A stretch of 10,451 nt of DNA, taken from IMG/VR virus record IMGVR_UViG_2562617113_000011, positions 1 through 10,451 of that record. One strand, written 5' to 3'. This DNA is from a virus. Taxonomy: Duplodnaviria > Heunggongvirae > Uroviricota > Caudoviricetes. Under the pieces are notes generated by a model. The model made no database searches. It saw nothing but the letters and a program-made list of their open reading frames with translations, and was not told where the DNA came from. A program made the translations under genes and the position numbers. Numbering within the stretch: the first letter of the stretch is position 1; each line of letters opens with the position of its first letter. This document shows, piece by piece, positions 1 to 10,451 of the stretch.

Positions 1-372
1 TTATCGCCGTAACCGCTCCGGCTTCTTCCACTGGTACGTAATTTTTTCTTTCTCCTGGTACATCTGCACGCGGCGACGGTACGACAACATCTCCAGAACT
101 CTGGTGCGTATGTTGCGTATATCCACGCCATTAAGCTCGATACCGTCACGGCGCATCACCTCAGCCATCACACGCGCGTAATTTTCAGCGGTGACTGTAT
201 CCGGCTGCGTGGCCTGTTCGTCAGCCTGCTGGCTGATTCCGGTAATACTGCGGATTATCCCGAGCGCTTCGGTCTCGGTCATGGTCATGGCCTCCATAGT
301 GATGGCGGGTCCTCCTGGTGGGGTGCCCTGCCACGGGGCGGGAGCATCGCGGAAAAAGGCTAGTTTTTGCAT
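1..372 (-). CDS. Hypothetical protein downstream of the small terminase gene (123 aa as drawn; more likely about 93 aa from an internal start at 282)
   Basis: Complete ORF whose stop codon is the first 3 nt of the window. The ATG at 372 has no convincing SD; the in-frame ATG at 282 is preceded by GGAGG with 8-nt spacing. No family recognised; a short QPDTV motif weakly recalls lambda gpFI but is insufficient to call. Confidence 0.45.
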   Translation of the reverse strand: MQKLAFFRDAPAPWQGTPPGGPAITMEAMTMTETEALGIIRSITGISQQADEQATQPDTVTAENYARVMAEVMRRDGIELNGVDIRNIRTRVLEMLSYRRRVQMYQEKEKITYQWKKPERLRR

Positions 373-491
373 TTTTATTCGTCATCACCACCAATGCAAT
401 ATATTGATATGACTTGATGTTTTATTTTTCGGTGTCGATTTCGATTGTTTTTTGTTCATCACTGACGCATAACTCCCACCAGCGCAACGCT

Positions 492-515
492 GAAAGCCAG
501 TCAGTAAACTGGCTT
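492..515 (-). other. Stem-loop (8-bp stem AAGCCAGT/ACTGGCTT, 6-nt loop) just 3' of the small terminase gene; weak U-tract
   Basis: Perfect inverted repeat seen directly in the 162-nt gap between the TerS stop (534) and the next gene. On the minus strand it is followed only by UUUCAG, so it is an attenuator or stabilising hairpin rather than a strong terminator. Confidence 0.3.
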
Positions 516-533
516 CGGTCATTGTGCACTACG

Positions 534-1076
534 TTACTTGTCTTTATCCGGCTGAAACTTATCAGGCACATTTCCGGTAGTTTCCATCAGATAATCGGAC
601 AGCATTCGCGGGATGTTTTCATCAAGTTTTGTGCATGCGTTACAGGCTCTGACAACTTCTTTTTTCAGGCCATCCAGCATGGCGGGGGTCATCTGTGGGA
701 AGCGCCTTTGCATGGTAAGCGGCAGGCTGTCCATGATAGATGAAATCTGACTCGCCAGTTTTGAAAGCGCATATATACAAAATTCCGTACTAATCACGTC
801 GCCGCGTTCGCGCTCGTTTTTAAGCTCCTGCGCCTCCGCCTGCGCTGTCAACAATCTGATCCTGACTCGCAAAAGCTCATCATTATCAATCTCGCCTTTG
901 TCGTCTGTAATCTGGTTAATTGCATTGCTAACCCGATTGTCTATTACGCTGGCAACATCATAAAACGCCTCGCGGCCTTTACGTTCAACGGGAGTCACTC
1001 CCCACTTGTCGAACGCTGTCGCACTTACACGGCAGCTTTGCGCCATGTTTTTTTTGTTCATCAGGTGCGATTTCAT
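534..1076 (-). CDS. Terminase small subunit, lambda Nu1-like (180 aa)
   Basis: The C-terminal two-thirds aligns closely to my recollection of lambda gpNu1 (e.g. AQAEAQELKN, LPLTMQRRFP, LDENIPRMLSDY); the N-terminal DNA-binding region is divergent. Start chosen at the ATG at 1076 (GGGGA SD, 5-nt spacing); alternatives are GTG 1088 and ATG 1061. Confidence 0.8.
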   Translation of the reverse strand: MKSHLMNKKNMAQSCRVSATAFDKWGVTPVERKGREAFYDVASVIDNRVSNAINQITDDKGEIDNDELLRVRIRLLTAQAEAQELKNERERGDVISTEFCIYALSKLASQISSIMDSLPLTMQRRFPQMTPAMLDGLKKEVVRACNACTKLDENIPRMLSDYLMETTGNVPDKFQPDKDK

Positions 1077-1181
1077 CAATATCCCCACTTAAGTAATGTT
1101 TCAGGTTGGTGTATTTGTTTTATCTTTCCCTTTTTATTCATAGAGATAGAGCGAACAACAAAACCACCACCAGCACCCGAA

Positions 1182-1228
1182 AAAGGCTCATAAATAGCGA
1201 AAACCCGCGCGTCTGCCGCCCCGTAACG
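1182..1228 (-). other. Lambda-like cos site (cosN-like 12-mer GGGCGGCAGACG at 1210-1221 on the minus strand, flanked by lambda-identical sequence)
   Basis: The minus strand reads CCGTTACG-GGGCGGCAGACG-CGCGGGTTTTCGCTATTTATGA. As I recall it, lambda reads GTTACG-GGGCGGCGACCT-CGCGGGTTTTCGCTATTTATGA, so the 22 nt after the 12-mer are identical and 5 of 12 overhang positions differ. It lies directly upstream of the Nu1-like gene, as in lambda. Confidence 0.6.
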
Positions 1229-1277
1229 GGTCCATATGCCGGAAAGGACCCGCCAGCCAGAGCGGGCCCTAATTTCA

Positions 1278-1622
1278 TCAACCAATCAACTTATTGCGCC
1301 CTTTCAGGGCATTACGCCTGGCGCGTTCAATCTTGAGGCATAACGCCGCATCAGGTTTTTCGGGGGTGGGAACAAGGCAATAATTTGATGCGCGCGGAAT
1401 GTTGTTAATCCACGCAACAACTTCGCTTAAATACCATGCCTTGCGGCCTTTCGTAACCTGTACGCGTTCGGGGAACTCTCCGCGAGCCTCAAGGTTTAGC
1501 AATGTGCGACGGCTAAGGGTTGTAAGCTCCACTACCTGATCCATATCGACAAGACGCTCGCTTAAGCGCATTTTATCATCGATATCTAATAGCTCTCGTA
1601 GCTGACTATCTCTTTCAATCAT
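1278..1622 (-). CDS. AlpA/excisionase-family HTH DNA-binding protein embedded in the head/packaging operon (114 aa)
   Basis: The central segment LVDMDQVVELTTLSRRTLLNLEARGEFPERVQVTKGRKAWYLSEVVAWI fits the AlpA/Vis pattern (hydrophobic-T-x-LSRsT-x(6)-G-FP ... W ... EV-x-W). ATG at 1622 lies 9 nt after the D-like stop, with GAGG overlapping that stop. Confidence 0.55.
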   Translation of the reverse strand: MIERDSQLRELLDIDDKMRLSERLVDMDQVVELTTLSRRTLLNLEARGEFPERVQVTKGRKAWYLSEVVAWINNIPRASNYCLVPTPEKPDAALCLKIERARRNALKGRNKLIG

Positions 1623-1631
1623 TCTCGTACC

Positions 1632-1973
1632 TCACACACGTGCCAGCGGCTGAACAGAAATACCTGAGCCAACAAACGCAGCAACTTTTGCTGATAGTTG
1701 TGTTACAGACTCAGGCCAGTTCAGAGCATCAACATTTAAGACGCCGGTTTTATAAACCTGAGCCTGCGTTTTTGTCGCTGTATCGATTTGTACAGCGGAA
1801 ACATAAACAGCTTTGCCTGCGCTCGTTCCATCCCATACCACCAGTGCACCAGTTACATCTTCTTGCATCAGTGGCGTAAACGCAGGGATTACCCCTTTAT
1901 TGGCTGAAAATATCCCCAGCGTAGTAACCAGTGCTTCAGTGCCAGCCATGAGTTCAGTGTAATGAGTAGCCAT
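1632..1973 (-). CDS. Head decoration protein, lambda gpD-like (113 aa)
   Basis: Size and motifs match remembered lambda gpD (PAFTPLM, VVWDGT, LNWPE, AFVGSGISV). Sits immediately downstream of the E-like gene (9-nt gap) with an AAGGGGGAG SD. Confidence 0.75.
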   Translation of the reverse strand: MATHYTELMAGTEALVTTLGIFSANKGVIPAFTPLMQEDVTGALVVWDGTSAGKAVYVSAVQIDTATKTQAQVYKTGVLNVDALNWPESVTQLSAKVAAFVGSGISVQPLARV

Positions 1974-1982
1974 TGCTCCCCC

Positions 1983-3023
1983 TTAACCAATGCGAACGGT
2001 AACAAAACGATTGATGCGGGCCGGTATTGGCTGTGGTGCAGAGTGCGTTTGTACGTACTCAATAGCCGGATCACCTGGTACGATGTAATTTTTCGGCGCA
2101 AGTTCGGCTTTAGTAAGCCCCATTCTGATTAACTCAGGATCCTGAATGCCACCGTAGGCAACGATGCCCTGTAATGATGTGTTGCCAAGCACCATCAAAT
2201 CAGGATCAAGGAAATATCTTTCAGTTCCGTCCTCGTCGGTATAACGTCCGCTATATACCACAATAGCAACATCGCCAACGTAACCCTTGAAGCTTACAGA
2301 ATCCCCAAGATTTTTCAGGGCCGTTTCAAGAACGGAATTAGATCCCCGTCGAGTATCAAGGCAATCTTTTACTGCTTTAAAGGCGCGGTATTTTTTCCAT
2401 ACGTTGCGGCCCATTACGATGATATTTGTAGTACCTTCGCTGATTTCTGCGTACTCTTCGATGTCATCGTTTGGATCAAATGTTGATAAATCTCTACCGC
2501 CCCACTCCGTACCGCCGAACTGCGTGATAATATTTTGTGGTTTTATATTCCAGTCCAGTTCATAACGTTCAATTCCATCGCCTTCAATGATATTTTTCCC
2601 CGTTGTAACCGCCTGAACAGCAAGCCACTCAATACGCGCACGAATTGCCTGCGCTTGTCTTACTAACGCTCGCTTTATTTTGAAACTGCGTGATGAATAT
2701 GCATTGAATTGTTCCGGTGATACGCCTGGTTGACGAACGGCTATTTTATTTGGGTCGATACTACTTTTTGGCTTCATATAGCCAGGACGAATTACTTTTG
2801 ATTCGTAGCCTTCATCGCGTGAGACTTTGCTACCAACCATAGGGGAACAAAATGCAGCCATCGGGATGTCTGGATCGTCAATAATATCAAGCGCAATATC
2901 CCGCGTCTCAAATGTAACGACTCGCTTAAAAAACAGGTTTATAAATAAAGAATTAATCTGCCATTGAATATCTTCGGCATTAACAACCTGTATTAACATA
3001 GCTGGTGAATATAAATCACTCAT
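1983..3023 (-). CDS. Major capsid protein, lambda gpE-like (346 aa)
   Basis: Long collinear similarity to remembered lambda gpE (NIITQFGGTEWGGRDLSTFDPNDDIEEYA, FKAVKDCLDTRRGSNSVLETA, GDVAIVVYSGRY, MVLGNT, VPGDPA); 346 aa against 341 aa for gpE; AAGAGG SD 4 nt before the ATG. Confidence 0.85.
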   Translation of the reverse strand: MSDLYSPAMLIQVVNAEDIQWQINSLFINLFFKRVVTFETRDIALDIIDDPDIPMAAFCSPMVGSKVSRDEGYESKVIRPGYMKPKSSIDPNKIAVRQPGVSPEQFNAYSSRSFKIKRALVRQAQAIRARIEWLAVQAVTTGKNIIEGDGIERYELDWNIKPQNIITQFGGTEWGGRDLSTFDPNDDIEEYAEISEGTTNIIVMGRNVWKKYRAFKAVKDCLDTRRGSNSVLETALKNLGDSVSFKGYVGDVAIVVYSGRYTDEDGTERYFLDPDLMVLGNTSLQGIVAYGGIQDPELIRMGLTKAELAPKNYIVPGDPAIEYVQTHSAPQPIPARINRFVTVRIG

Positions 3024-3207
3024 ATAACCTCTTAATACTTAGTAAAAGTGTCGCGTTAATTTTATCATCTGCCTTGTTCGGCATCTTTATGCATTGCTAT
3101 GCAATAGTGTGCAAAGTTTCAATCTTCGTTTATTTATCCGGCGTTACGTGTCATTCTGTACAGCGTTACAAGTTCAAAGACATAAATTATTCTCTTTGGT
3201 GATGAAA

Positions 3208-3234
3208 GGGTCGGAATATTCCGGCCTTTTTTTT
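3208..3234 (+). terminator. Intrinsic terminator on the plus strand (hairpin GGUCGGAAUAUUCCGGCC followed by T8)
   Basis: Palindrome CGGAATATTCCG extended by G-C and G-U pairs, then TTTTTTTT at 3227-3234. No convincing plus-strand CDS lies upstream. Confidence 0.55.
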
Positions 3235-3256
3235 GCGTGGTGTGACGGACTAAACT

Positions 3257-3281
3257 GATAAAAGCCGGATTGCTCCGGCTT
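3257..3281 (-). terminator. Intrinsic terminator ending the SSB operon (stem AAGCCGGA/TCCGGCTT, loop TTGC, then UUUUAU on the minus strand)
   Basis: Perfect 8-bp GC-rich stem located 15 nt after the SSB stop; the minus-strand read is followed by a T-run. Confidence 0.6.
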
Positions 3282-3295
3282 CTGTCACTCGTTGC

Positions 3296-3718
3296 TTAAA
3301 ACGGTATGTTATCCCCGTACGGATCATCGTTACCCGCCTGTTGTTTTGCCCTGTTCAGTGCGTCAGTAGCCTGCCCCTGCTGGCCTTTTTTGCCGCCCGG
3401 TCGCACCGTTCTCGCACTGATTACGCTGTCTGCGATAACCTGCCAGCCCTGCCGCGTTTCGCCGTTCTGGCCTGTCCACTGGCTTACCTGCATGTTACCC
3501 GCCACGCTCACCAGTTCGCCTTTGTGGTGTTTTGCCAGTGCGTCGGCCTGTCTGCCAAACGCCAGGACAGATAACCACATCGTCGCCGTTCCGTCATTTG
3601 CCTGGCTGCATGGCAGGGGAACCGCCATACTCGCCATCGCCATTTGTGTCCCTTTGCTGGTGGTCTTTAACTGCGGGTCAGCCACCAGCCGCCCGTAAGC
3701 CGCTATCTGTGCTGTCAT
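3296..3718 (-). CDS. ssb: Single-stranded DNA-binding protein (140 aa)
   Basis: OB-fold SSB pattern (GRLVADPQLK ... WLSVLAFGRQAD ... GELVSVAGNMQVSQWTGQNGETRQ), a Gly/Gln-rich linker and a C-terminal DDPYGDNIPF resembling the canonical SSB acidic tip DDDIPF. ATGA start/stop overlap with the upstream gene. Confidence 0.75.
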   Translation of the reverse strand: MTAQIAAYGRLVADPQLKTTSKGTQMAMASMAVPLPCSQANDGTATMWLSVLAFGRQADALAKHHKGELVSVAGNMQVSQWTGQNGETRQGWQVIADSVISARTVRPGGKKGQQGQATDALNRAKQQAGNDDPYGDNIPF

Positions 3719-3993
3719 GCTGTCTGCTCTCCGGTTTTAACATTGATGGTTGTCACCTGTTCCGCTTCGGCAATCTCCCGTTCTGTCAGCGTGGCAAAGT
3801 TTGCTGCCGCCGTTGTCATGAATGCGCTTATCAGGTCGGGATGTTCCTTCGCGTATCCTTCCCCCGCGTGGCGGTCTATCGTTCTGATTGCCACCTTTAA
3901 AGCGTGCTCTGTCATGTCTAACGCGCGATATTTCGGCTCTGTTCTGTCTCTGCGTTTTTTGAGTGATTTATTAAATCTCCCTGAAGTGTGCAT
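3715..3993 (-). CDS. Hypothetical protein, basic N-terminus (92 aa), translationally coupled to ssb
   Basis: ORF with a GAGGGGG SD upstream of the ATG at 3993; its stop overlaps the ssb start (ATGA). No family recognised. Confidence 0.5.
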   Translation of the reverse strand: MHTSGRFNKSLKKRRDRTEPKYRALDMTEHALKVAIRTIDRHAGEGYAKEHPDLISAFMTTAAANFATLTEREIAEAEQVTTINVKTGEQTA

Positions 3994-4040
3994 ATTTATT
4001 TTTACCCCCTCGTTTAAAAAGTTTTGAGTTGTGCCTCCCC

Positions 4041-4268
4041 TTGTCTACCTTATCTACCTTAGTGGCCCCTATGCCAGTAATGGCGCGGCTTTCAGCGGGG
4101 TAGAGTGCTTTTATCCACTATCTACTCCGTATCTACCTCCCTGTCTGATTCAGGTAAAATCAGGTAGAGAGGGTAGACAGTGGGTAGACTGTAAAAAAAG
4201 GCTGTCTACCTAACTTAATATACTGAATTAAATGTATTTTCCTTTACTCAGGTAGACAGGGTAGACAG
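4041..4268. repeat. Iteron cluster, putative origin of replication: about 9-bp GGTAGACAG/CTGTCTACC repeats in both orientations flanking an AT-rich spacer
   Basis: Direct copies at 4163-4171 (GGTAGAGAG), 4172-4180, 4183-4191 (GGTAGACTG), 4251-4259 and 4260-4268. Inverted copies at 4041-4049 and 4202-4210, with degenerate TCTACC units at 4051-4058, 4119-4127 and 4131-4137. AT-rich stretch at 4211-4250. Lies immediately 3' of the primase gene. Confidence 0.65.
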
Positions 4269-4281
4269 CAATTACAAAAAA

Positions 4282-6036
4282 TTATAAAAACGCGTCGCAC
4301 TCGTCTGTTGTTATTGCGTTAGTCTGCGTTACCCCCTTAACTTTCCGCGTAATATATTCATGTCCATAAACTTTTGCGGCAGGCTTCATAGCCTTGCCAA
4401 AGTCATTTACGTTTAGCGGTTTGCTCCTGCCTGCGTATGCCATAAACGCCAGATAGACGCGGTAAAGGCTGTTCCTGGTCGTGTACTTCACTGAATCACC
4501 ACCGCCCCCCATCATCAGGCCGCGCGCTTCCTCCAGAAAATTCAGGAACTGGCAAAACTCAATAACCGGATCCGTCTGTTGCTTTATTGCCAGTGCTTCA
4601 TCACCGTCACGCTGTTCCAGTAGTAAAGCCCGTGCCTTCTCAGGGTCGGTAAAGTTCGCCAGCAATCGGCGGATAATAACGGGGATTTCAGCCGCAATCT
4701 TTTCCGGTAGCTCCCTGTCTTTTTCGGCATCACTGACGATATTGTCGAAACGGAAAATCACGCGACGACGTGCCACACCTCCGGCCCGTTCGGTGAATAT
4801 CATCGGGTTGTTGTTGGTCGCCAGCACCACCGCCCTGATTACCGCCGTGAAACGCTTTTCATATTTCGGGTTAATTTCCACGGGGTCGCCGCCTGTGATT
4901 TTCTTGATGCCCGTTCCTTCGCCTGTATATTTCGGCTGGTCAGCCAGGACGATAAGACGACTCCCGACAACCTGCGCACGTCCACCAGCATCATCAAGCG
5001 ATGTCATTTCAGCGCTTACCGTGTTCTGTTTCCCTGCCAGAAGGCTGGCTATGTGTGTGAATGTACTTTTACCGCTCCCGCCGTCTCCGGTGGCCTCAAT
5101 AAACATCTGCCAGTCGTACCGGTTCGCCATAATCATGTACAGCGCGGCACATATACGCATCATCTTGCGCGGGTCTTTTCCGGCTGCGTGCTCAAGCCAT
5201 TTATGAAAGTTTGGCGCGTTATCGCGGATGTTTTCCCCTGGTGCTGGTAGCGTGTACTCAATGCCGTTGTGCGTGGTGATCCAGTTCTCCGGCGTGTGCG
5301 GGGAAAATTCCCCCGTTTTCAGGTCAAGCGCACCATTGGCGAACGGCAGCAAATCGCCGGACGGCTCGCCCATTGGTTCGGCAATAACTTTTAACGCTTC
5401 CACGGCGTTATTGATTACGCGCTTGCTGAAAGTGGCCCTGTGCTCTGAATAGATCGCCACCATTTCGCGGCTAAGTTCCATTGTGCTGACCGGACACCAT
5501 ACCCCGCCGCGCCATACGTGAACGATTTCACTTTCAGGATGTACGCAAACGCCATCAAAGCGATCGGCAAGCAGCTGCGCGCGCTCACTGTCCGCCATCT
5601 GCGAAAGTTGCGCCTTTTGCTTTACCGGAAGCTCAATGACCAGACCATCAGAAAGATTCTGGCGCTCACGGGCCAGATATTCGCGCCAGTTCTCCACCTT
5701 CTGACCGTGCATACCGTCAGGGTAAAAATTTGCATCCTGTACGCCTGCCGCCGCCAGCTTCTGACCAATTGCCTTTATCATTACAGGCGCAAGATATCCG
5801 GCCCTGTATATGCGTGCTGATTTTCGGCCTTCCGGCACAATTTGCAGCTTATCCAGTTCGGATAACTGCTGCTCCCCAAGCCACACAGGAGGCTCATTAT
5901 CTCCGGCCATACGCGCATCATGTTCCTGCCATTGTTTCGCGTGTGCCCAGGCATCACTACCCGCAAAAATAATGACTTCTGTTCCTTTGTGTTTTATGCC
6001 GCGTGACTGCTGTTTTACGTTCGGTGCCAGTTTCAT
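4282..6036 (-). CDS. P4-family primase/helicase replication initiator (584 aa; Walker A GDGGSGKST, SF3-type NTPase)
   Basis: P-loop GDGGSGKST and a following hydrophobic Walker-B-like stretch RLIVLADQ; overall resemblance to the helicase/C-terminal part of P4 alpha and PICI pri-rep proteins; N-terminal region possibly toprim-like. ATGA overlap with the upstream gene. Confidence 0.85.
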   Translation of the reverse strand: MKLAPNVKQQSRGIKHKGTEVIIFAGSDAWAHAKQWQEHDARMAGDNEPPVWLGEQQLSELDKLQIVPEGRKSARIYRAGYLAPVMIKAIGQKLAAAGVQDANFYPDGMHGQKVENWREYLARERQNLSDGLVIELPVKQKAQLSQMADSERAQLLADRFDGVCVHPESEIVHVWRGGVWCPVSTMELSREMVAIYSEHRATFSKRVINNAVEALKVIAEPMGEPSGDLLPFANGALDLKTGEFSPHTPENWITTHNGIEYTLPAPGENIRDNAPNFHKWLEHAAGKDPRKMMRICAALYMIMANRYDWQMFIEATGDGGSGKSTFTHIASLLAGKQNTVSAEMTSLDDAGGRAQVVGSRLIVLADQPKYTGEGTGIKKITGGDPVEINPKYEKRFTAVIRAVVLATNNNPMIFTERAGGVARRRVIFRFDNIVSDAEKDRELPEKIAAEIPVIIRRLLANFTDPEKARALLLEQRDGDEALAIKQQTDPVIEFCQFLNFLEEARGLMMGGGGDSVKYTTRNSLYRVYLAFMAYAGRSKPLNVNDFGKAMKPAAKVYGHEYITRKVKGVTQTNAITTDECDAFL

Positions 6037-6332
6037 TTTTTACCCCTGAATCCGTTAATCATGGTTTTCAGCTTCTGGATGTTTGCCCGTGCCCTGGCGT
6101 TGCTGGTGGGCACGTTATGCGGCGCGGTCTGTACCAGAGAAAAATCACGGGCAAACTGATAAACAGGCATCACGCAATCATATTCGTAACCTTCACGGCG
6201 GTAAGTTACGCGCCGTTCCTCCACGCCCTTAATCATTACCGTGCCGCCGTACTGGTCGCGGTAAATATCACCGCGCATGAATTTAGTGCGAGTTTTGCCG
6301 CTGGCAGTTAAGCCAGGATATTTAAGTTTCAT
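6033..6332 (-). CDS. Hypothetical protein immediately upstream of and coupled to the primase (99 aa)
   Basis: GGAGA SD 9 nt before the ATG at 6332; stop overlaps the primase ATG. Its position matches that of P4 Cnr-type replication modulators, but this is positional inference only. Confidence 0.5.
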   Translation of the reverse strand: MKLKYPGLTASGKTRTKFMRGDIYRDQYGGTVMIKGVEERRVTYRREGYEYDCVMPVYQFARDFSLVQTAPHNVPTSNARARANIQKLKTMINGFRGKK

Positions 6333-6337
6333 TATTT

Positions 6338-6571
6338 TTATTCTCCGGTGTGCTGTTCTTTATATCTGTCGTGCAATAGGTCTATTTCTTGTAGTTCCAT
6401 TATTACAGGCTCAAGAAGCGTTATTAATGCCGTGACAATTCGGGATTTTTGTTTGTCGCGTTCATTATCGCCAAGCGTTTCAAGCCATAAGCGCAATATT
6501 TCCAACATGTTTTCACTGTGAGAAAGTGCAAGAAATGCGCGGTCTATTGTTTCGTGGTAAATATCACGCAT
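6338..6571 (-). CDS. Hypothetical small helical protein (77 aa)
   Basis: GGGGA SD 5 nt before the ATG at 6571; 1-nt gap after the upstream gene's stop. No family recognised. Confidence 0.5.
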   Translation of the reverse strand: MRDIYHETIDRAFLALSHSENMLEILRLWLETLGDNERDKQKSRIVTALITLLEPVIMELQEIDLLHDRYKEQHTGE

Positions 6572-6572
6572 A

Positions 6573-7025
6573 TTAATCCCCGTCCGTCGCTTTTCTTAAA
6601 ATAACCTCTGTCACGAAATCAGCATAATCGGCGGCAATATTCAGTACATCAAGTCCCGTTGATTTATATTCTTTCGTGGAAAGTAAGAAAAAATCCGCTC
6701 TAATAAGTTCTGGCATTGACGAAAGCGCATCAGCCGCATCACCAGGAACGCCGGAAAATTCCTGTTTCAGGGCATTAAAACGATCATCACGCATAACCCC
6801 CCCATTTTCACAATCAGTAATCAGGATGGCTTTAGCCTCATTCAGTGCCATATCAGCACTAAATTGCATAACAGCCAGTGAGTGAGGAACGAAAGCCCCG
6901 GCATATTCTGTTTCGCTGGTGGCGTGCTTATGTGCCCTGTCCGCGATAACAGAAATATCAATCAGCGCGTGCATCAGCGTTTTGATGGCTTCGGCGGCTG
7001 CGTCCTGACGGGTGTTATTGCACAT
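6573..7025 (-). CDS. Hypothetical protein (150 aa)
   Basis: Strong AGGAGG SD 6 nt before the ATG at 7025. The longer 300-aa ORF in the track is an R/P/S-rich upstream extension and was rejected. Start overlaps the stop of the upstream gene by 11 nt. Confidence 0.55.
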   Translation of the reverse strand: MCNNTRQDAAAEAIKTLMHALIDISVIADRAHKHATSETEYAGAFVPHSLAVMQFSADMALNEAKAILITDCENGGVMRDDRFNALKQEFSGVPGDAADALSSMPELIRADFFLLSTKEYKSTGLDVLNIAADYADFVTEVILRKATDGD

Positions 7026-7557
7026 GGCGCACCTCCTGACGAATACGGGCGGCGAATACAGCGACACAACCGGACGGGCAATGGTTACGCGCTTCGCGTT
7101 CCGTCCAGGCGGTGACGTGGATGATTTGGGATTCTGACGCGCCAAAGATGATAAAGCGCCAGATAAAGACAGTGTGAGAATGTATAAGGGTAGGGATAGT
7201 AGCCATGTTGGCAGCCTCCTTTGACAGTGAAGAATTTCCACCGCAGGAAACGCCAATTTCGCTGGCGGTGGACTGAACGGGGTTGGCGTAACCGGCGTCA
7301 AAGGGAACCGGCGCTTCCGAAGAAGCCCCCGCCCAGCCCACCATAACTTTGATGTGAGCGAATGCGGACGATAAAAAAGACGCTGGCGCGTCATATATCG
7401 CCTTTGACATTTCCAAGACGCCAATCCCGGCACCAGATTTTGCTGGTGCGGGTAAATCATAGCCCTGGCTGGCATTGGCGATCAACAGGTTTTTTACATC
7501 GGGTTTATTCAGGTTGTGCGAGTCCCGCCCTTGCGGGTGTGTGGTATGATTTAACAT
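7015..7557 (-). CDS. First gene of the replication operon: Ash-family-like N-terminal region fused in frame to an Icd-like (host cell division inhibitor-like) C-terminal region (180 aa)
   Basis: The N-terminal half carries motifs I associate with P4-like Ash proteins (AKSGAGIGV, MVGWAG, PVPFDAGYANPVQSTASEIGVS). The C-terminal 63 aa (FIWRF ... ESQIIHVTAWTEREARNHC ... AVFAARIRQEV) resembles Icd-like proteins and has its own AAGGAGG SD before an internal ATG at 7206. GAGGT SD before the ATG at 7557. Family assignment is from memory. Confidence 0.5.
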   Translation of the reverse strand: MLNHTTHPQGRDSHNLNKPDVKNLLIANASQGYDLPAPAKSGAGIGVLEMSKAIYDAPASFLSSAFAHIKVMVGWAGASSEAPVPFDAGYANPVQSTASEIGVSCGGNSSLSKEAANMATIPTLIHSHTVFIWRFIIFGASESQIIHVTAWTEREARNHCPSGCVAVFAARIRQEVRHVQ

Positions 7558-7649
7558 AGCTACCTCGATACTTCTGCTATCGTTGGTGGTTAGAAGCCCT
7601 GCGAGTGGTAACGACACTTGCGGGGCTTTGCATTTATGCGCCTTGATAA

Positions 7650-7730
7650 TTTTAAGGTGTGGCCCACTATATGTTTTAGGTGTGGCCCACGTCAAGAGTT
7701 TTATTTGTGCTTTTTCTGTGTATACTGTCC
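7650..7730. promoter_or_regulatory. Divergent promoter/operator region: two 13-bp direct repeats AGGTGTGGCCCAC (7655-7667, 7678-7690) overlapping candidate sigma70 promoters on both strands
   Basis: Minus strand: -35 TTGACG (plus 7690-7695), 18-bp spacer, -10 TATAGT (plus 7666-7671), so both repeats fall in the -35/spacer/-10 region. Plus strand: -10 TATACT (7721-7726) with upstream TGTG, 30 nt before the RHH-like gene. Each repeat contains the dyad GTGG-C-CCAC. Confidence 0.55.
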
Positions 7731-7756
7731 CCCACCAATCCACCAGAGGAATAGAA

Positions 7757-7936
7757 ATGGCAACGGGTACAACAAACGCAAAATCACAAGCTCTAAAGGC
7801 TCGTGTACCACACGAAATAGTAAACGCCATGGAATCAGTGAAAGAATCAGGCGAAAGCACATCACAATTCATCATTACGTCAATGCAAGGCGAGATCAAA
7901 CGCCGCCAGCGGCGCAAGGCCAAAGAGCAGGAGTAA
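7757..7936 (+). CDS. Small DNA-binding-like protein, possibly ribbon-helix-helix (59 aa); candidate repressor acting at the adjacent repeats
   Basis: GAGGAA SD 6 nt before the ATG; the N-terminal segment KSQALKARVPHEIVNAMESV resembles an Arc/CopG-type strand-helix; basic C-terminal tail. Fold is inferred, not computed. Confidence 0.55.
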   Translation: MATGTTNAKSQALKARVPHEIVNAMESVKESGESTSQFIITSMQGEIKRRQRRKAKEQE

Positions 7937-7993
7937 CCATCACCAGCGCTGTGGTGCGGTGAACTGTGGCGCACTGGGTTACAGGTATCTACG

Positions 7994-8191
7994 ATGACTG
8001 ACAAATCATTAAAGAAATTATCCTCATCCAGGAAAAAACAACGCAAAAATGCGGTAAGCGAACAAGAACAGGAGAGATTTGCGCCATGTGCGTTTGCCCT
8101 TGAGAAGTTCTTAAAAGAGTACAGGCGCACAAAAATGGGGTCGCATACCTGGAAAACATCGCGGCATGGCAATGTTAAAGAGCAGGAATAG
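7994..8191 (+). CDS. Hypothetical highly basic small protein (65 aa); coding status uncertain
   Basis: ORF following the RHH-like gene in the same orientation with a weak SD (AGGT, 7-nt spacing); K/R-rich, no motif recognised. A plus-strand terminator follows at 8295-8322. Confidence 0.35.
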   Translation: MTDKSLKKLSSSRKKQRKNAVSEQEQERFAPCAFALEKFLKEYRRTKMGSHTWKTSRHGNVKEQE

Positions 8192-8294
8192 CCCACCAGC
8201 AAGCCAGCACACTGATCACATTGCCCACCAGCCGCAAATGTGGCATTGTTGGCAATGCTCATGCGTTGGGGATAACGTGTAGCTTGTGTCGAAG

Positions 8295-8322
8295 GGCCAC
8301 CGTAGCGGGTGGCCTTTGTTTT
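8295..8322 (+). terminator. Intrinsic terminator for the small plus-strand operon (stem GGCCACC/GGTGGCC, then TTTGTTTT)
   Basis: 7-bp GC stem with a 6-nt loop followed by a T-rich tract on the plus strand only. Confidence 0.55.
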
Positions 8323-8360
8323 GCCTGTTATCCGGCAATTGTGGCGCTTCGCTACACGGT

Positions 8361-8446
8361 TGATATAATCCCACTGCACTGATTCATTTTTTGCGCAGTA
8401 GGTTAATTGTTCGCAAGGGCGCTCCGGCAACGGGGCGCTTTTTGTT
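8361..8446 (+). ncRNA. Candidate small RNA unit: extended -10 promoter (TGaTATAAT, 8361-8369) followed about 50 nt later by a strong intrinsic terminator (8419-8446)
   Basis: Perfect TATAAT preceded by TGn; hairpin GCGCUCCG-GCAA-CGGGGCGC (GNRA-type loop) followed by TTTTTGTT; no ATG-initiated ORF between them. Lies on the opposite strand just past the 3' end of alpA. Confidence 0.3.
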
Positions 8447-8473
8447 ATGTTCATCGCGTTACGCCTCACACCA

Positions 8474-8680
8474 TTACGCAGCCGTTCCGCGCGCTTCTTC
8501 CTCGCGCTCTTTCAGCCAGGCCAGCACTTCATCTTCATACCAGCCAACACGACGCAGACCGATTTTGAAGCCTTTCGGGAATTTTCCTGCGTTGATCATG
8601 TCCTGTAGCGAACTGTCTGCCTTGATGCGCAGAATATTTTTTACTTCCTGACGGGTAAGTATTTTTCTGATTGTTTCCAC
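8474..8680 (-). CDS. alpA: AlpA/Vis-family phage transcriptional regulator / excisionase-like protein (68 aa)
   Basis: HTH pattern LRIKADSSLQDMINAGKFPKGFKIGLRRVGWYEDEVLAWL typical of AlpA; GTG start at 8680 with GAGGT SD 8 nt upstream; position next to the integrase. Confidence 0.8.
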   Translation of the reverse strand: METIRKILTRQEVKNILRIKADSSLQDMINAGKFPKGFKIGLRRVGWYEDEVLAWLKEREEEARGTAA

Positions 8681-8813
8681 TATGTTTTACCTCGTTAATC
8701 CGGCGTATTCCGGTGATAAATACGGTAAAACAGGGCTGGGCGGGAAAAACAGTACCCACCGTTTTAAAACGGTATCCACTGTTTTTTATCTCATTGATTA
8801 CGCTTTTCTTTCT

Positions 8814-8846
8814 GCAAAAAAATAGCGACCGCAAAGGGCCGCTATT
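8814..8846 (-). terminator. Intrinsic terminator after the integrase-proximal small gene (10-bp stem with one mismatch, then a U6-8 tract on the minus strand)
   Basis: Inverted repeat AATAGCGACC/GGCCGCTATT (8821-8846) followed on the minus strand by an A-run on the plus strand (8815-8820), i.e. U-tract. Confidence 0.55.
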
Positions 8847-8850
8847 GTGA

Positions 8851-9093
8851 TTACCGTTTCCACTTCTTAGGTCGCCCACCGCATTTAAGGCTGGTGGGCC
8901 TCAGCACCTTGTCGATGCTTTCAGCCAGATTTTTCGATGCACCACGCGAGCGCAAAAAACTGACTACCTCGTGTTTTGTGGGGGCTGTTGATTTGTCTTC
9001 CGGATCGTATGTTGACCAGAATTCACGATTTGCCATTAACGCCAGTTGCAGCCCTTCGCCGCAAGCAGGGGATACCTTTTCATTGAAAAACAC
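8851..9093 (-). CDS. Hypothetical protein downstream of the integrase (80 aa), basic C-terminus GGRPKKWKR
   Basis: GTG start at 9093 with AAGGAG SD 8 nt upstream; followed by an intrinsic terminator. No family recognised. Confidence 0.45.
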   Translation of the reverse strand: MFFNEKVSPACGEGLQLALMANREFWSTYDPEDKSTAPTKHEVVSFLRSRGASKNLAESIDKVLRPTSLKCGGRPKKWKR

Positions 9094-9209
9094 CTGGATA
9101 GCTCCTTGAATTTCATGATTTGGGTGACTCCTCTCTGTATTGGGTGGGTTGTGGCGATTATACGATGGTTTAGCATGGTTTGCATCGCTTTTACTGGTTT
9201 TTTGTACAG

Positions 9210-10451
9210 TTACACGGCACGGATACCCCTTTTACCACTGGCTATGGTCACTCCGGTAGCTGCGGCCTCTACAAATTCCCCCCACCAGCGCATAAGCACC
9301 ACGCGCTTTTCCAGGTAGTTACTTCGGTTATATGCTCGCCTTACCTCGTTCGTGTCCACGTGTGCGAGTGCGGCCTCGATTACGTCCGGCTCGAATCCTT
9401 CCTCGTTCGCTGCTGTACTGAATATGGCGCGTAATCCGTGAGACACCAGCACACCAGCGTATCCCATCCGGCGCAATGCAGCGTTAGCGGTCTGGCTGTT
9501 CATTGGCAGCATTGGATTTTTAAGGCTGGGAAAAACATGTTCCCTGTGTGCGCTGATTGGCTTCATTGTTTCCAGTACAGCCATCGCCTGACCGCAAAGA
9601 GGGATCACATGGTCACGGCGCATCTTCATGCGTCCGGCTGGAATCGTCCATGTTTCGGCATCGAGATCTATTTCTTCCCAGCGTGCGGCGGCTGCTTCGG
9701 CTGGGCGTGCTACGGTCAGCAGTTGCCACTCGATTAGCAATCTGGTTTGCCGTTCTATGCTGGCGACCGATAAATCGTGCATTAGCTGCGGTAGCTGTTC
9801 CGGTCGGATGGTTGGCATATGCTTTTTAGTGGGGGAAGGGAATGCCTTGCGGACGTTCGCGGCGGTGTTGATGTCAATCAGCCCACTGTTGGCAGCAAAA
9901 TCCATCACTTCATTGATGCGTTGTAAAACGCGTTTCAGAGTTTCCAGGTTGCCGCGTGCTTTAATGGGTGTGAGTATCTCAACAAAGCGGCGAGCGGTGA
10001 GGGTATCTATTGGCGTGTTTCCGATGTACGGGAATACGTATTTTTCCAGGGATCGCCAGATATCCTTAATCGTGTTGTAAGCCAGATTCTGGCCTTTTTT
10101 CATCTCGTACCAGTCCAAGGCAACTTTTTCGAACGTGTTGCCCTTTTTCCTGCTCTCTGCTTCACGTTTCCGGCGTTCGTAGTCCTGTGGGTCAGTTCCC
10201 TTTGCTATGAGTGACCTGTATTCATTCCGTCGCTCTCTGGCATCAGACAGGGAAACATCATTTAGCGATCCAAGGCTGATAATAGTCCGTTTTTTATCTG
10301 CCGGGCGGTAGTACGTAAAACGCCAGATTTTTGATCCGGAGGGCTTCACCAGAAGAAATAATCCTCCGCCATCCTGCAGGGTATATTCCTTTTCCCCTGG
10401 TCGTGCGTTTTTGATCTCCGTAATAGTTAGTGGGGTGGTTTTTCGTGCCAT
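9210..10451 (-). CDS. int: P4-type tyrosine integrase (site-specific recombinase, 413 aa)
   Basis: N-terminus MARKTTPLTITEIKNARPGEKEYTLQDGGGLFLLVKPSGSKIWRFTYY is typical of P4/CP4-57-type integrases; C-terminal catalytic region with HGLR and the RRAYNRSNY tyrosine motif. The start codon is the last 3 nt of the window. Confidence 0.9.
   Translation of the reverse strand: MARKTTPLTITEIKNARPGEKEYTLQDGGGLFLLVKPSGSKIWRFTYYRPADKKRTIISLGSLNDVSLSDARERRNEYRSLIAKGTDPQDYERRKREAESRKKGNTFEKVALDWYEMKKGQNLAYNTIKDIWRSLEKYVFPYIGNTPIDTLTARRFVEILTPIKARGNLETLKRVLQRINEVMDFAANSGLIDINTAANVRKAFPSPTKKHMPTIRPEQLPQLMHDLSVASIERQTRLLIEWQLLTVARPAEAAAARWEEIDLDAETWTIPAGRMKMRRDHVIPLCGQAMAVLETMKPISAHREHVFPSLKNPMLPMNSQTANAALRRMGYAGVLVSHGLRAIFSTAANEEGFEPDVIEAALAHVDTNEVRRAYNRSNYLEKRVVLMRWWGEFVEAAATGVTIASGKRGIRAV

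Follow-up and report, generated by a model that had tools for sequence, protein, structure and literature searches.

What kind of element is carried on the 10,451-bp stretch of DNA given by positions 1 to 10,451 of the IMG/VR virus record IMGVR_UViG_2562617113_000011? We consider that this stretch (hereafter the window, always at its full length) very probably represents about 95% of a Gram-negative phage-inducible chromosomal island (PICI) of approximately 10.7 kb, belonging to the Escherichia coli EcCICFT073/EcCIATCC25922 family and, within it, to the subclass that encodes a Nu1-type small terminase (TerS) instead of an Rpp protein, with the life cycle that this assignment implies. An earlier note on the same DNA, made from the sequence without database searches, had recognised a satellite with a P4-like backbone and a lambda-type head and packaging module, and had suggested that its content matched neither classical P4 nor familiar PICIs nor fully capsid-forming ones and might represent an undescribed lineage. 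This suggestion falls because the island EcCIATCC25922, which occupies the same chromosomal locus, has this gene content in this order, and EcCIIHE3034 also has the same content; a match to a satellite family already described was the outcome that the earlier note itself had set against its proposal. The element is therefore an ordinary member of a known family, and novelty as a lineage is not supported. The classification is based mainly on Pfam and PHROG assignments and on comparison with named reference islands.

Three lines of evidence carry this classification. First, the window has the components of a PICI. The definition used by SatelliteFinder comprises an integrase, a regulator, a primase-replicase, a capsid morphogenesis gene and a small terminase (PMC10085698), and Pfam and PHROG place all five in the canonical order of integrase, alpA, primase-replicase, capsid and small terminase. 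A tyrosine integrase gene stands at one end of the island, which measures about 10.7 kb between att repeats in its copy in E. coli EC43, as compared with the roughly 8-15 kb of PICIs; alpA is downstream of int, and transcription is essentially unidirectional, two small divergent ORFs excepted, as in EcCICFT073. The primase-replicase gene is followed by an iteron origin, the capsid and decoration components are homologous to c1499 and c1500 of EcCICFT073, and redirection of packaging is represented by TerS (534-1076) together with a cos site (about 1160-1255). A PICI-specific att site is available by proxy, through the near-identical EC43 island at yejM-narP. Among the ORFs scanned in the window, Pfam and PHROG gave no match to portal, large terminase (TerL), protease, scaffold, tail, lysis, Sid, Psu, Delta or Epsilon proteins. 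A major capsid gene has been found in 21 of 29 reference Gram-negative PICIs (10.1101/2022.07.18.500453), and the presence of capsid and decoration genes in PICIs of this family has already been stated in published work.

Second, the window follows the plan of named islands gene by gene. EcCIATCC25922, the annotation of which includes a "major capsid protein", a "head decoration protein" and a 543-bp "terminase small subunit", begins with int, a small ORF, alpA, YlcI, an Icd-like gene, DUF4222, the primase gene and the origin, and ends with a small ORF, SSB, major capsid, decoration, cos, the 543-bp terS and a 282-bp terminal ORF, just as the window does (identities are given in Table 1). EcCIIHE3034 shares the gene content at a different att site, and the size class of 10.5-11.4 kb is common to these islands. 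The window differs from both in its capsid and decoration alleles, which are only 54-56% identical to theirs, in a 114-aa AlpA-like helix-turn-helix protein (HTH2) that replaces an unrelated 137-aa hypothetical protein encoded between decoration and cos in the reference PICIs, in having one cos site where they have two, and in its cosN sequence, GGGCGGCAGACG as against GGGCGGCGACCT. With EcCICFT073, the experimentally characterised prototype, the window shares the backbone, capsid and decoration genes in the same position, the anatomy of cos and the terminal ORF. In contrast, EcCICFT073 encodes RppA where the window encodes a full-length Nu1-type TerS, its integrase is only 25% identical, its att site is ycfD-phoQ, and it also carries perC.

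Third, a close relative of the window can be seen in its chromosomal setting. An island 98% identical to the window, covering 79% of it, is present in E. coli EC43, at 2043600-2054350 of NZ_CP196712.1, and the uncovered remainder corresponds to different primase and Icd alleles in that strain. The EC43 island lies between yejO/narP and tRNA-Pro/yejM, with ordinary chromosomal flanks and no phage genes nearby, and an element of approximately 10.7 kb is bounded there by a 27-bp direct repeat (26/27), CGTATAGCT[A/T]AACGTGTAGCTAAAAA. By comparison with this island, the att sites lie outside the window, about 430 bp beyond its left end and 70-90 bp beyond its right end, and a tRNA scan found no tRNA within the window, tRNA-Pro falling just outside it. 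The yejM-luxR(narP) locus is listed for EcCIATCC25922, EcCIED1a.1, EcCI11128 and EcCI11368.1 (Fillol-Salom et al. 2018, Table S1). EcCIATCC25922 and EcCIED1a.1 thus occupy the same locus, from tRNA-Pro/yejM to narP, as the EC43 relative; of these two, EcCIATCC25922 was used for direct gene comparison, and EcCIED1a.1 is known here from the published table only. A search of the EC43 locus that allowed up to 2 mismatches did not recover the published att core, TTTGTAGTTATACG, and a variant repeat with the same architecture is present there instead, such that the att core of the window-type island is a variant of that published for the EcCIATCC25922 type. The earlier note had advised extending the flanks in search of att repeats, a tRNA target, and portal or TerL genes; with EC43 as proxy, the 27-bp repeats and tRNA-Pro were found, and portal and TerL genes were absent from the flanks.

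We also observed a sequence close to the far end of the EC43 island, at 7470-7500 of the EC43 locus, that repeats part of the 3′ end of tRNA-Pro in degenerate form (TGGTCGCACGAGAGTATTCAAAAC compared with TGGTCGGCACGAGAGGATTTGAAC); tRNA-Pro itself is at 18341-18417. This copy hints at an earlier integration that targeted the tRNA and left a scar next to the 27-bp att repeat that is now used.

The packaging module places the island among satellites of lambdoid cos phages. About 80 nt of its cos site can be aligned with lambdoid phages, at 80-90% identity and with an exact 22-nt match, CGCGGGTTTTCGCTATTTATGA, at 1188-1209 (0 matches expected by chance). The alignment covers the cosQ and cosN flanks and collapses on the cosB side, to the right of cosN; a lambda-like cosQ/cosN with a divergent cosB is the pattern published for EcCICFT073 (PMC6739421). 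Direct repeats resembling R elements were not found in the cosB region at seed 7. The 12-nt cosN overhang, at 1211-1222 on the minus strand, is GGGCGGCAGACG, with both flanks identical to lambda, and it differs at 4 of 12 positions from the canonical overhang, GGGCGGCGACCT, of lambdoid phages and of the EcCICFT073, ATCC25922, IHE3034 and DAX4 islands. As the cos position of the window gave no match to the lambda 12-mer with 2 or fewer mismatches, the variant overhang was recognised by alignment. Of 5426 complete E. coli genomes, 9 carry the variant, each a single time. In all four of the carriers inspected, it is located within a PICI, and the neighbouring TerS shares at least 99.4% identity with that of the window; the DAX4 island has a TerS 98.9% identical, yet has kept the canonical cosN. 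Exact-pattern scans of IMG/VR viral contigs and of GTDB species-representative genomes gave zero matches to the variant.

The protein encoded beside cos aligns over its full length with Nu1; in tblastn, its identity is 36% with lambda Nu1, covering 93% of its length, and 47% with N15 gp1. Its N-terminal DNA-binding part has diverged and has been shortened by deletions, and from about residue 72 onward it is well conserved with lambda-like Nu1. We take the deletions to fall in the wing of Nu1 and in the segment that follows its winged-helix DNA-binding domain, and the part from about residue 72 to be the region of self-assembly and gpA binding. A comparison with PDB sequences gave no meaningful match for TerS, RppC (6hlk) remaining unmatched at E<=1, and the 144-aa RppA of EcCICFT073 matches 6hlk at 5e-31. 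The protein at the Rpp position of the window is hence a full-length Nu1 homologue and not an Rpp, the protein that in Rpp-type cos PICIs forms heterodimers with the helper TerS (Fillol-Salom 2019). The earlier note was right in seeing here an element built to exploit lambdoid cos helpers with a packaging-specificity module of its own, as the lambda-type cos and the Nu1-type TerS indicate; the cos site itself is confirmed by the exact match and by the cosQ/cosN alignment.

What might be the role of the capsid and decoration homologues? The capsid protein matches the PDB entry 3bqw ("putative capsid protein of prophage") at 5e-121; among the phage capsids in the collection, its best match is lambda E, at no more than 41.7% identity, which points to an old satellite-specific lineage rather than to a recent capture. 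Comparison of alleles from different strains gave dN/dS values of about 0.07 (capsid gene), 0.09 (decoration gene) and 0.14 (HTH2). All three genes are under purifying selection, which is strong for the capsid and decoration genes, and these two are functional. In EcCICFT073, deletion of either gene did not restore plaque formation by lambda (PMC6092414), a capsid knockout was tolerated for helper-assisted transfer (10.1101/2022.07.18.500453), and the particles that carry the island have capsids of phage size (PMC6092414; 10.1101/2022.07.18.500453). The homologues probably co-assemble with helper proheads or modify them, and they are unlikely to be needed for transfer. By arithmetic, four units of 10.7 kb (about 43 kb) would fit a lambda-sized head. 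HTH2 could be a late regulator or an accessory factor of cos.

We also considered that the divergent E and D homologues, which are coupled to HTH2 and a true TerS and are under strong purifying selection, might form satellite-specific, possibly small, heads on the portal, protease and scaffold of the helper. We regard this arrangement as improbable. If it were true, such heads would place the subclass functionally between classical PICIs and capsid-forming PICIs (cf-PICIs), and the rare cosN variant could mark a packaging specificity private to the sublineage. Distinctly less likely again is the complete proposal of the earlier note, in which an undescribed lineage joins a P4-like backbone to a lambda-type shell and packaging module, makes its own capsid shell, and steals portal, TerL, scaffold and tails. 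The gene content is indeed as that proposal described it, and both the purifying selection on the capsid and decoration genes and the limit of about 42% identity to any phage capsid in the collection, which speaks for a satellite-specific lineage, would be in keeping with it. Against it stand the same architecture in the reference PICIs of 2018, EcCIATCC25922 and EcCIIHE3034, the fit to the SatelliteFinder definition, and a primase 98-99% identical to that of EcCICFT073. As for the shell, the EcCICFT073 deletions, the tolerated knockout and the phage-sized particles weaken the idea that the island supplies its own, which may be kept as a minority possibility.

The replication module ties the window closely to the characterised PICIs. 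The iteron origin that the earlier note had seen is confirmed: ten GGTAGAC/GTCTACC iterons (at most 1 mismatch) lie in both orientations at 4043-4266, with a stretch of 85% AT at 4221-4240 inside the iteron region. It shares 94.8% identity with the segment that follows pri in EcCICFT073, a functional origin by experiment (PMC6092414). The primase protein is 98.5% identical to that of EcCICFT073 and 98.8% to that of EcCIATCC25922, but only 48% to that of the EC43 island (window 3933-5614 in the comparison with EC43), and the rest of the EC43 island is 98-100% identical to the window. This mosaic reflects a recent exchange of the replication module between PICIs.

Upstream of these genes, C4 and isrK RNAs were detected in the Icd/Ash region and are joined by a sub-threshold Rfam match to the c4-a1b1 target (7261-7462, minus strand). 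They correspond to an RNA immunity module of the P4 CI/seqA type; the same RNA families have already been reported for Gram-negative PICIs (10.1101/2022.07.18.500453). When the whole window was compared with the phage collection by megablast, only a stretch of about 250 nt (7187-7440) matched, overlapping the C4 and isrK genes and resembling the SfV immunity region and an antirepressor region of Stx-phages. Since the sole DNA similarity to phages in this comparison is the immunity RNA zone, the island is not a phage fragment.

These same features raise the question of whether the island is a P4-family satellite relying on a P2-like helper. Like P4, it has a tyrosine integrase, a regulator of the AlpA/Vis type, a D5-type primase-helicase, an Icd-like gene and CI-type RNA immunity (C4, isrK). 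However, the set of integrase, AlpA, alpha-type primase-helicase and CI RNA immunity is common to Gram-negative PICIs and so does not discriminate between the two. Unlike P4, the window has among the scanned ORFs no homologue of Sid, Psu or Delta, which serve P4 in capsid size determination, decoration and late activation, nor of Epsilon; it carries capsid and decoration homologues of its own, and its cos, with the match of about 80 nt to lambdoid phages, and its Nu1-type TerS are of the lambda type and not of the P2 type. Furthermore, the helpers of its closest characterised relatives are lambda, phi80 and a lambdoid prophage (PMC6092414). We therefore hold a dependence on P2-like phages to be very unlikely.

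A degraded lambdoid prophage that has kept a few head genes would explain the E, D and Nu1 homologues and a cos site that are lambdoid in family. However, the EC43 copy is flanked by housekeeping genes and clean att repeats; because no phage genes occur in these flanks, we exclude such a remnant, and the window instead covers about 95% of a complete, compact element. The earlier note, too, had preferred a satellite to a decayed prophage. In addition, all of the ORFs are intact and under purifying selection, no phage capsid in the collection shares more than about 42% identity with that of the island, and this compact element is found repeatedly, at several att sites and with different integrases. 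A contiguous series of head, tail, lysis and immunity genes in lambda order is not present: only E, D and Nu1 homologues were found, in the order and orientation of a PICI and not of lambda. Equally hard to credit is a cf-PICI stealing only tails, for although the island encodes a major capsid, a decoration protein and TerS, the defining portal, prohead maturation protease, head-tail adaptor or connector, HNH and TerL genes were not detected by Pfam or PHROG among the scanned ORFs, and a 10.7-kb element with every gene accounted for leaves no room for them; the earlier note, too, had seen no match to fully capsid-forming PICIs.

Comparison with staphylococcal islands offers a precedent for the packaging step of the PICI that we propose. 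In SaPI1 and SaPIbov1, a satellite-encoded TerS redirects the helper TerL to satellite DNA, and SaPIbov5 is a cos satellite with a capsid homologue, Ccm. In contrast with the window, these islands belong to an unrelated Gram-positive lineage with divergent transcription and the Stl repressor, and the SaPI TerS acts in pac (headful) packaging; moreover, Ccm of SaPIbov5 makes small capsids, which E. coli PICIs are not known to do.

Gene content, homologies, the anatomy of cos and ori, chromosomal context and purifying selection on the late genes are the direct basis for the life cycle that we suggest; for induction, replication, recruitment of TerL by TerS and transfer, we extrapolate from characterised relatives. 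The island would be integrated beside tRNA-Pro/yejM by its own tyrosine integrase and kept quiet partly via the P4-CI-like RNA system. A lambdoid helper would then switch on AlpA, leading to excision and to expression of the unidirectional operon, and the primase-helicase would fire the adjacent iteron origin with the help of the island SSB. We infer AlpA induction, excision and iteron replication because they have been shown in EcCICFT073 and because the replication module is 95-99% identical. The resulting concatemers would carry cos, with a helper-like cosQ/cosN and an island-specific cosB. The island TerS might bind this cosB and recruit the helper TerL (gpA) to a cosN that is a substrate of the helper enzyme, competing with the helper Nu1 for TerL, and island DNA would be packaged into helper-made heads and tails at the expense of the helper. 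The alignment of TerS with Nu1, with a shortened N-terminal part and a conserved C-terminal two-thirds, supports this model of TerS, cosB and TerL together with the island-specific cosB.

Several points weigh against our interpretation. In the searched literature, we found no experiments on the window island or on any TerS-type E. coli PICI, and it is from domain conservation and the SaPI TerS precedent that we infer the recruitment of TerL by TerS. It is not certain that a standard lambdoid TerL cuts the variant cosN. Since the characterised PICIs have capsid and decoration alleles with only about 55% identity to those of the window, the dispensability reported for EcCICFT073 may not transfer to this island. 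Finally, the window itself contains no att site, and its placement at tRNA-Pro/yejM is deduced from the 98% identical EC43 island.

How widespread is this arrangement of late genes? The block of capsid, decoration, HTH and terS is present at 80% coverage or more in 264 of 5426 complete E. coli genomes, and it occurs at more than one att site, with unrelated integrases. The late zone consists of E, D, HTH and terS in the window, EC43 and QML220601, of E, D and RppA in CFT073 and 042, and of a ClpP-capsid fusion with terS in the UTAK-5 and Ecol_224-like islands. In the last group, a gene for a fused ClpP-like prohead protease and major capsid (UTAK-5 locus 2785-4698; Ecol_224 locus 7700-9613) replaces E, D and HTH, and the backbone and terS of both islands are near-identical to those of the window. 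The presence of the fusion gene in place of E, D and HTH on a near-identical backbone suggests that the late zone is swapped as a cassette.

The family was described in 2018 and has since been catalogued in thousands, and the gene content of the window is that of a textbook member. The island nevertheless touches two recognised questions in the field, namely, the role of the conserved capsid and decoration homologues of PICIs and the manner in which TerS-type, as opposed to Rpp-type, E. coli PICIs work, and its divergent E/D allele and variant cosN make it a reasonable test case for both.

The features of the window are collected in Table 1. All of the credible genes are on the minus strand, except for two small divergent ORFs on the plus strand.

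Table 1. Features of the window, with the identity of each product to its counterparts in two reference islands
Feature	Position	Strand	Basis and remarks	EcCIATCC25922	EcCICFT073
Tyrosine integrase, 413 aa	9210-10451	-	Pfam Phage_integrase 1e-26, Arm-DNA-bind_3, Phage_int_M; arm-binding, central and catalytic domains; first gene of the island	83%	25%
Small hypothetical ORF between int and alpA	8851-9093	-	Conserved; EC43 100%; 61 aa in EC43 annotation	73%	
AlpA-family regulator/excisionase	8474-8680	-	Pfam Phage_AlpA 4.5e-8	75%	60% over 25 aa only
Hypothetical, 65 aa	7994-8191	+	PHROG 949 / 21027 (with YlcI gene); annotated in EC43 and CFT073		
YlcI/YnfO family gene	7757-7936	+	PHROG 949 / 21027 (with 65-aa gene); annotated in EC43 and CFT073	58%	98%
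Icd-like/Ash ("Bro zone") coding region	7015-7566	-	Pfam Phage_ASH 3.2e-18; PHROG 29966; overlaps the RNAs; start uncertain		
C4 antisense RNA	7261-7348	-	Rfam 82 bits (gathering 45)		
isrK / seqA-like RNA	7373-7449	-	Rfam 70.5 bits (gathering 50)		
PHROG 2512 protein	6573-7025	-	Small conserved PICI gene		
77-aa ORF (orf77)	6338-6571	-	Small conserved PICI gene	97%	90%
DUF4222	6033-6332	-	Small conserved PICI gene	91%	96%
Primase-helicase replication initiator, 584 aa	4282-6036	-	Pfam D5_N 4.7e-15, DUF5906, Pox_D5; PHROG "DNA primase" 1.6e-173	98.8%	98.5%
Replication origin, iterons	4037-4271	.	Repeat scan; similarity to EcCICFT073 ori		
Hypothetical, 92 aa (orf92)	3715-3993	-	PHROG 1231, listed for the orf92/SSB pair	98%	71%
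Single-strand DNA-binding protein (SSB)	3296-3718	-	Pfam SSB 2.6e-16	89%	70%
Lambda-E-family major capsid homologue, 346 aa	1983-3023	-	Pfam Phage_cap_E 3.4e-40	56%	55%
gpD-family head decoration homologue, 113 aa	1632-1973	-	Pfam HDPD 7.4e-16	54%	54%
Second AlpA-family HTH protein (HTH2), 114 aa	1278-1622	-	Pfam 8.7e-8; PDB 8c3t (AlpA family protein) 4.5e-10		
cos site	1160-1255	-	Alignment with lambdoid phages		
Nu1-type small terminase (TerS), 180 aa	534-1076	-	Pfam Phage_Nu1 5.5e-23 (C-terminal half only); PHROG 57	84%	none; RppA at this position
Terminal conserved PICI ORF	1-372	-	PHROG 1561 2e-51; 93 aa (1-282) in annotation of relatives	72%	69%

The genes named in the earlier note (integrase, AlpA, primase/helicase, E, D, HTH and Nu1) were all recovered by Pfam on the minus strand, and its list of missing functions agrees with our scan. 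To these we add the SSB gene, the Icd/Ash region with its C4 and isrK RNAs, DUF4222, and the identification of the HTH protein as a second member of the AlpA family. AlpA is the master activator in Gram-negative PICIs, a role that we transfer here from EcCICFT073 (PMC6092414; 10.1101/2022.09.08.507074). The ORF at 8851-9093 has no Pfam or PHROG match. The integrase is 99.8% identical to that of the EC43 island, the three small genes within 6033-7025 are 85-96% identical to their EcCICFT073 counterparts, and the terminal ORF corresponds to the last gene of both reference islands. Counterparts of the Icd/Ash region in relatives are annotated in RefSeq as "Icd-like protein". Two long ORFs, at 6573-7475 (300 aa) and 7015-8469 (484 aa), were rejected as mostly spurious: only their C-terminal parts match families (PHROG 2512 and Ash/Icd-like, respectively), and the remainder overlaps the RNA genes and the divergent small genes.

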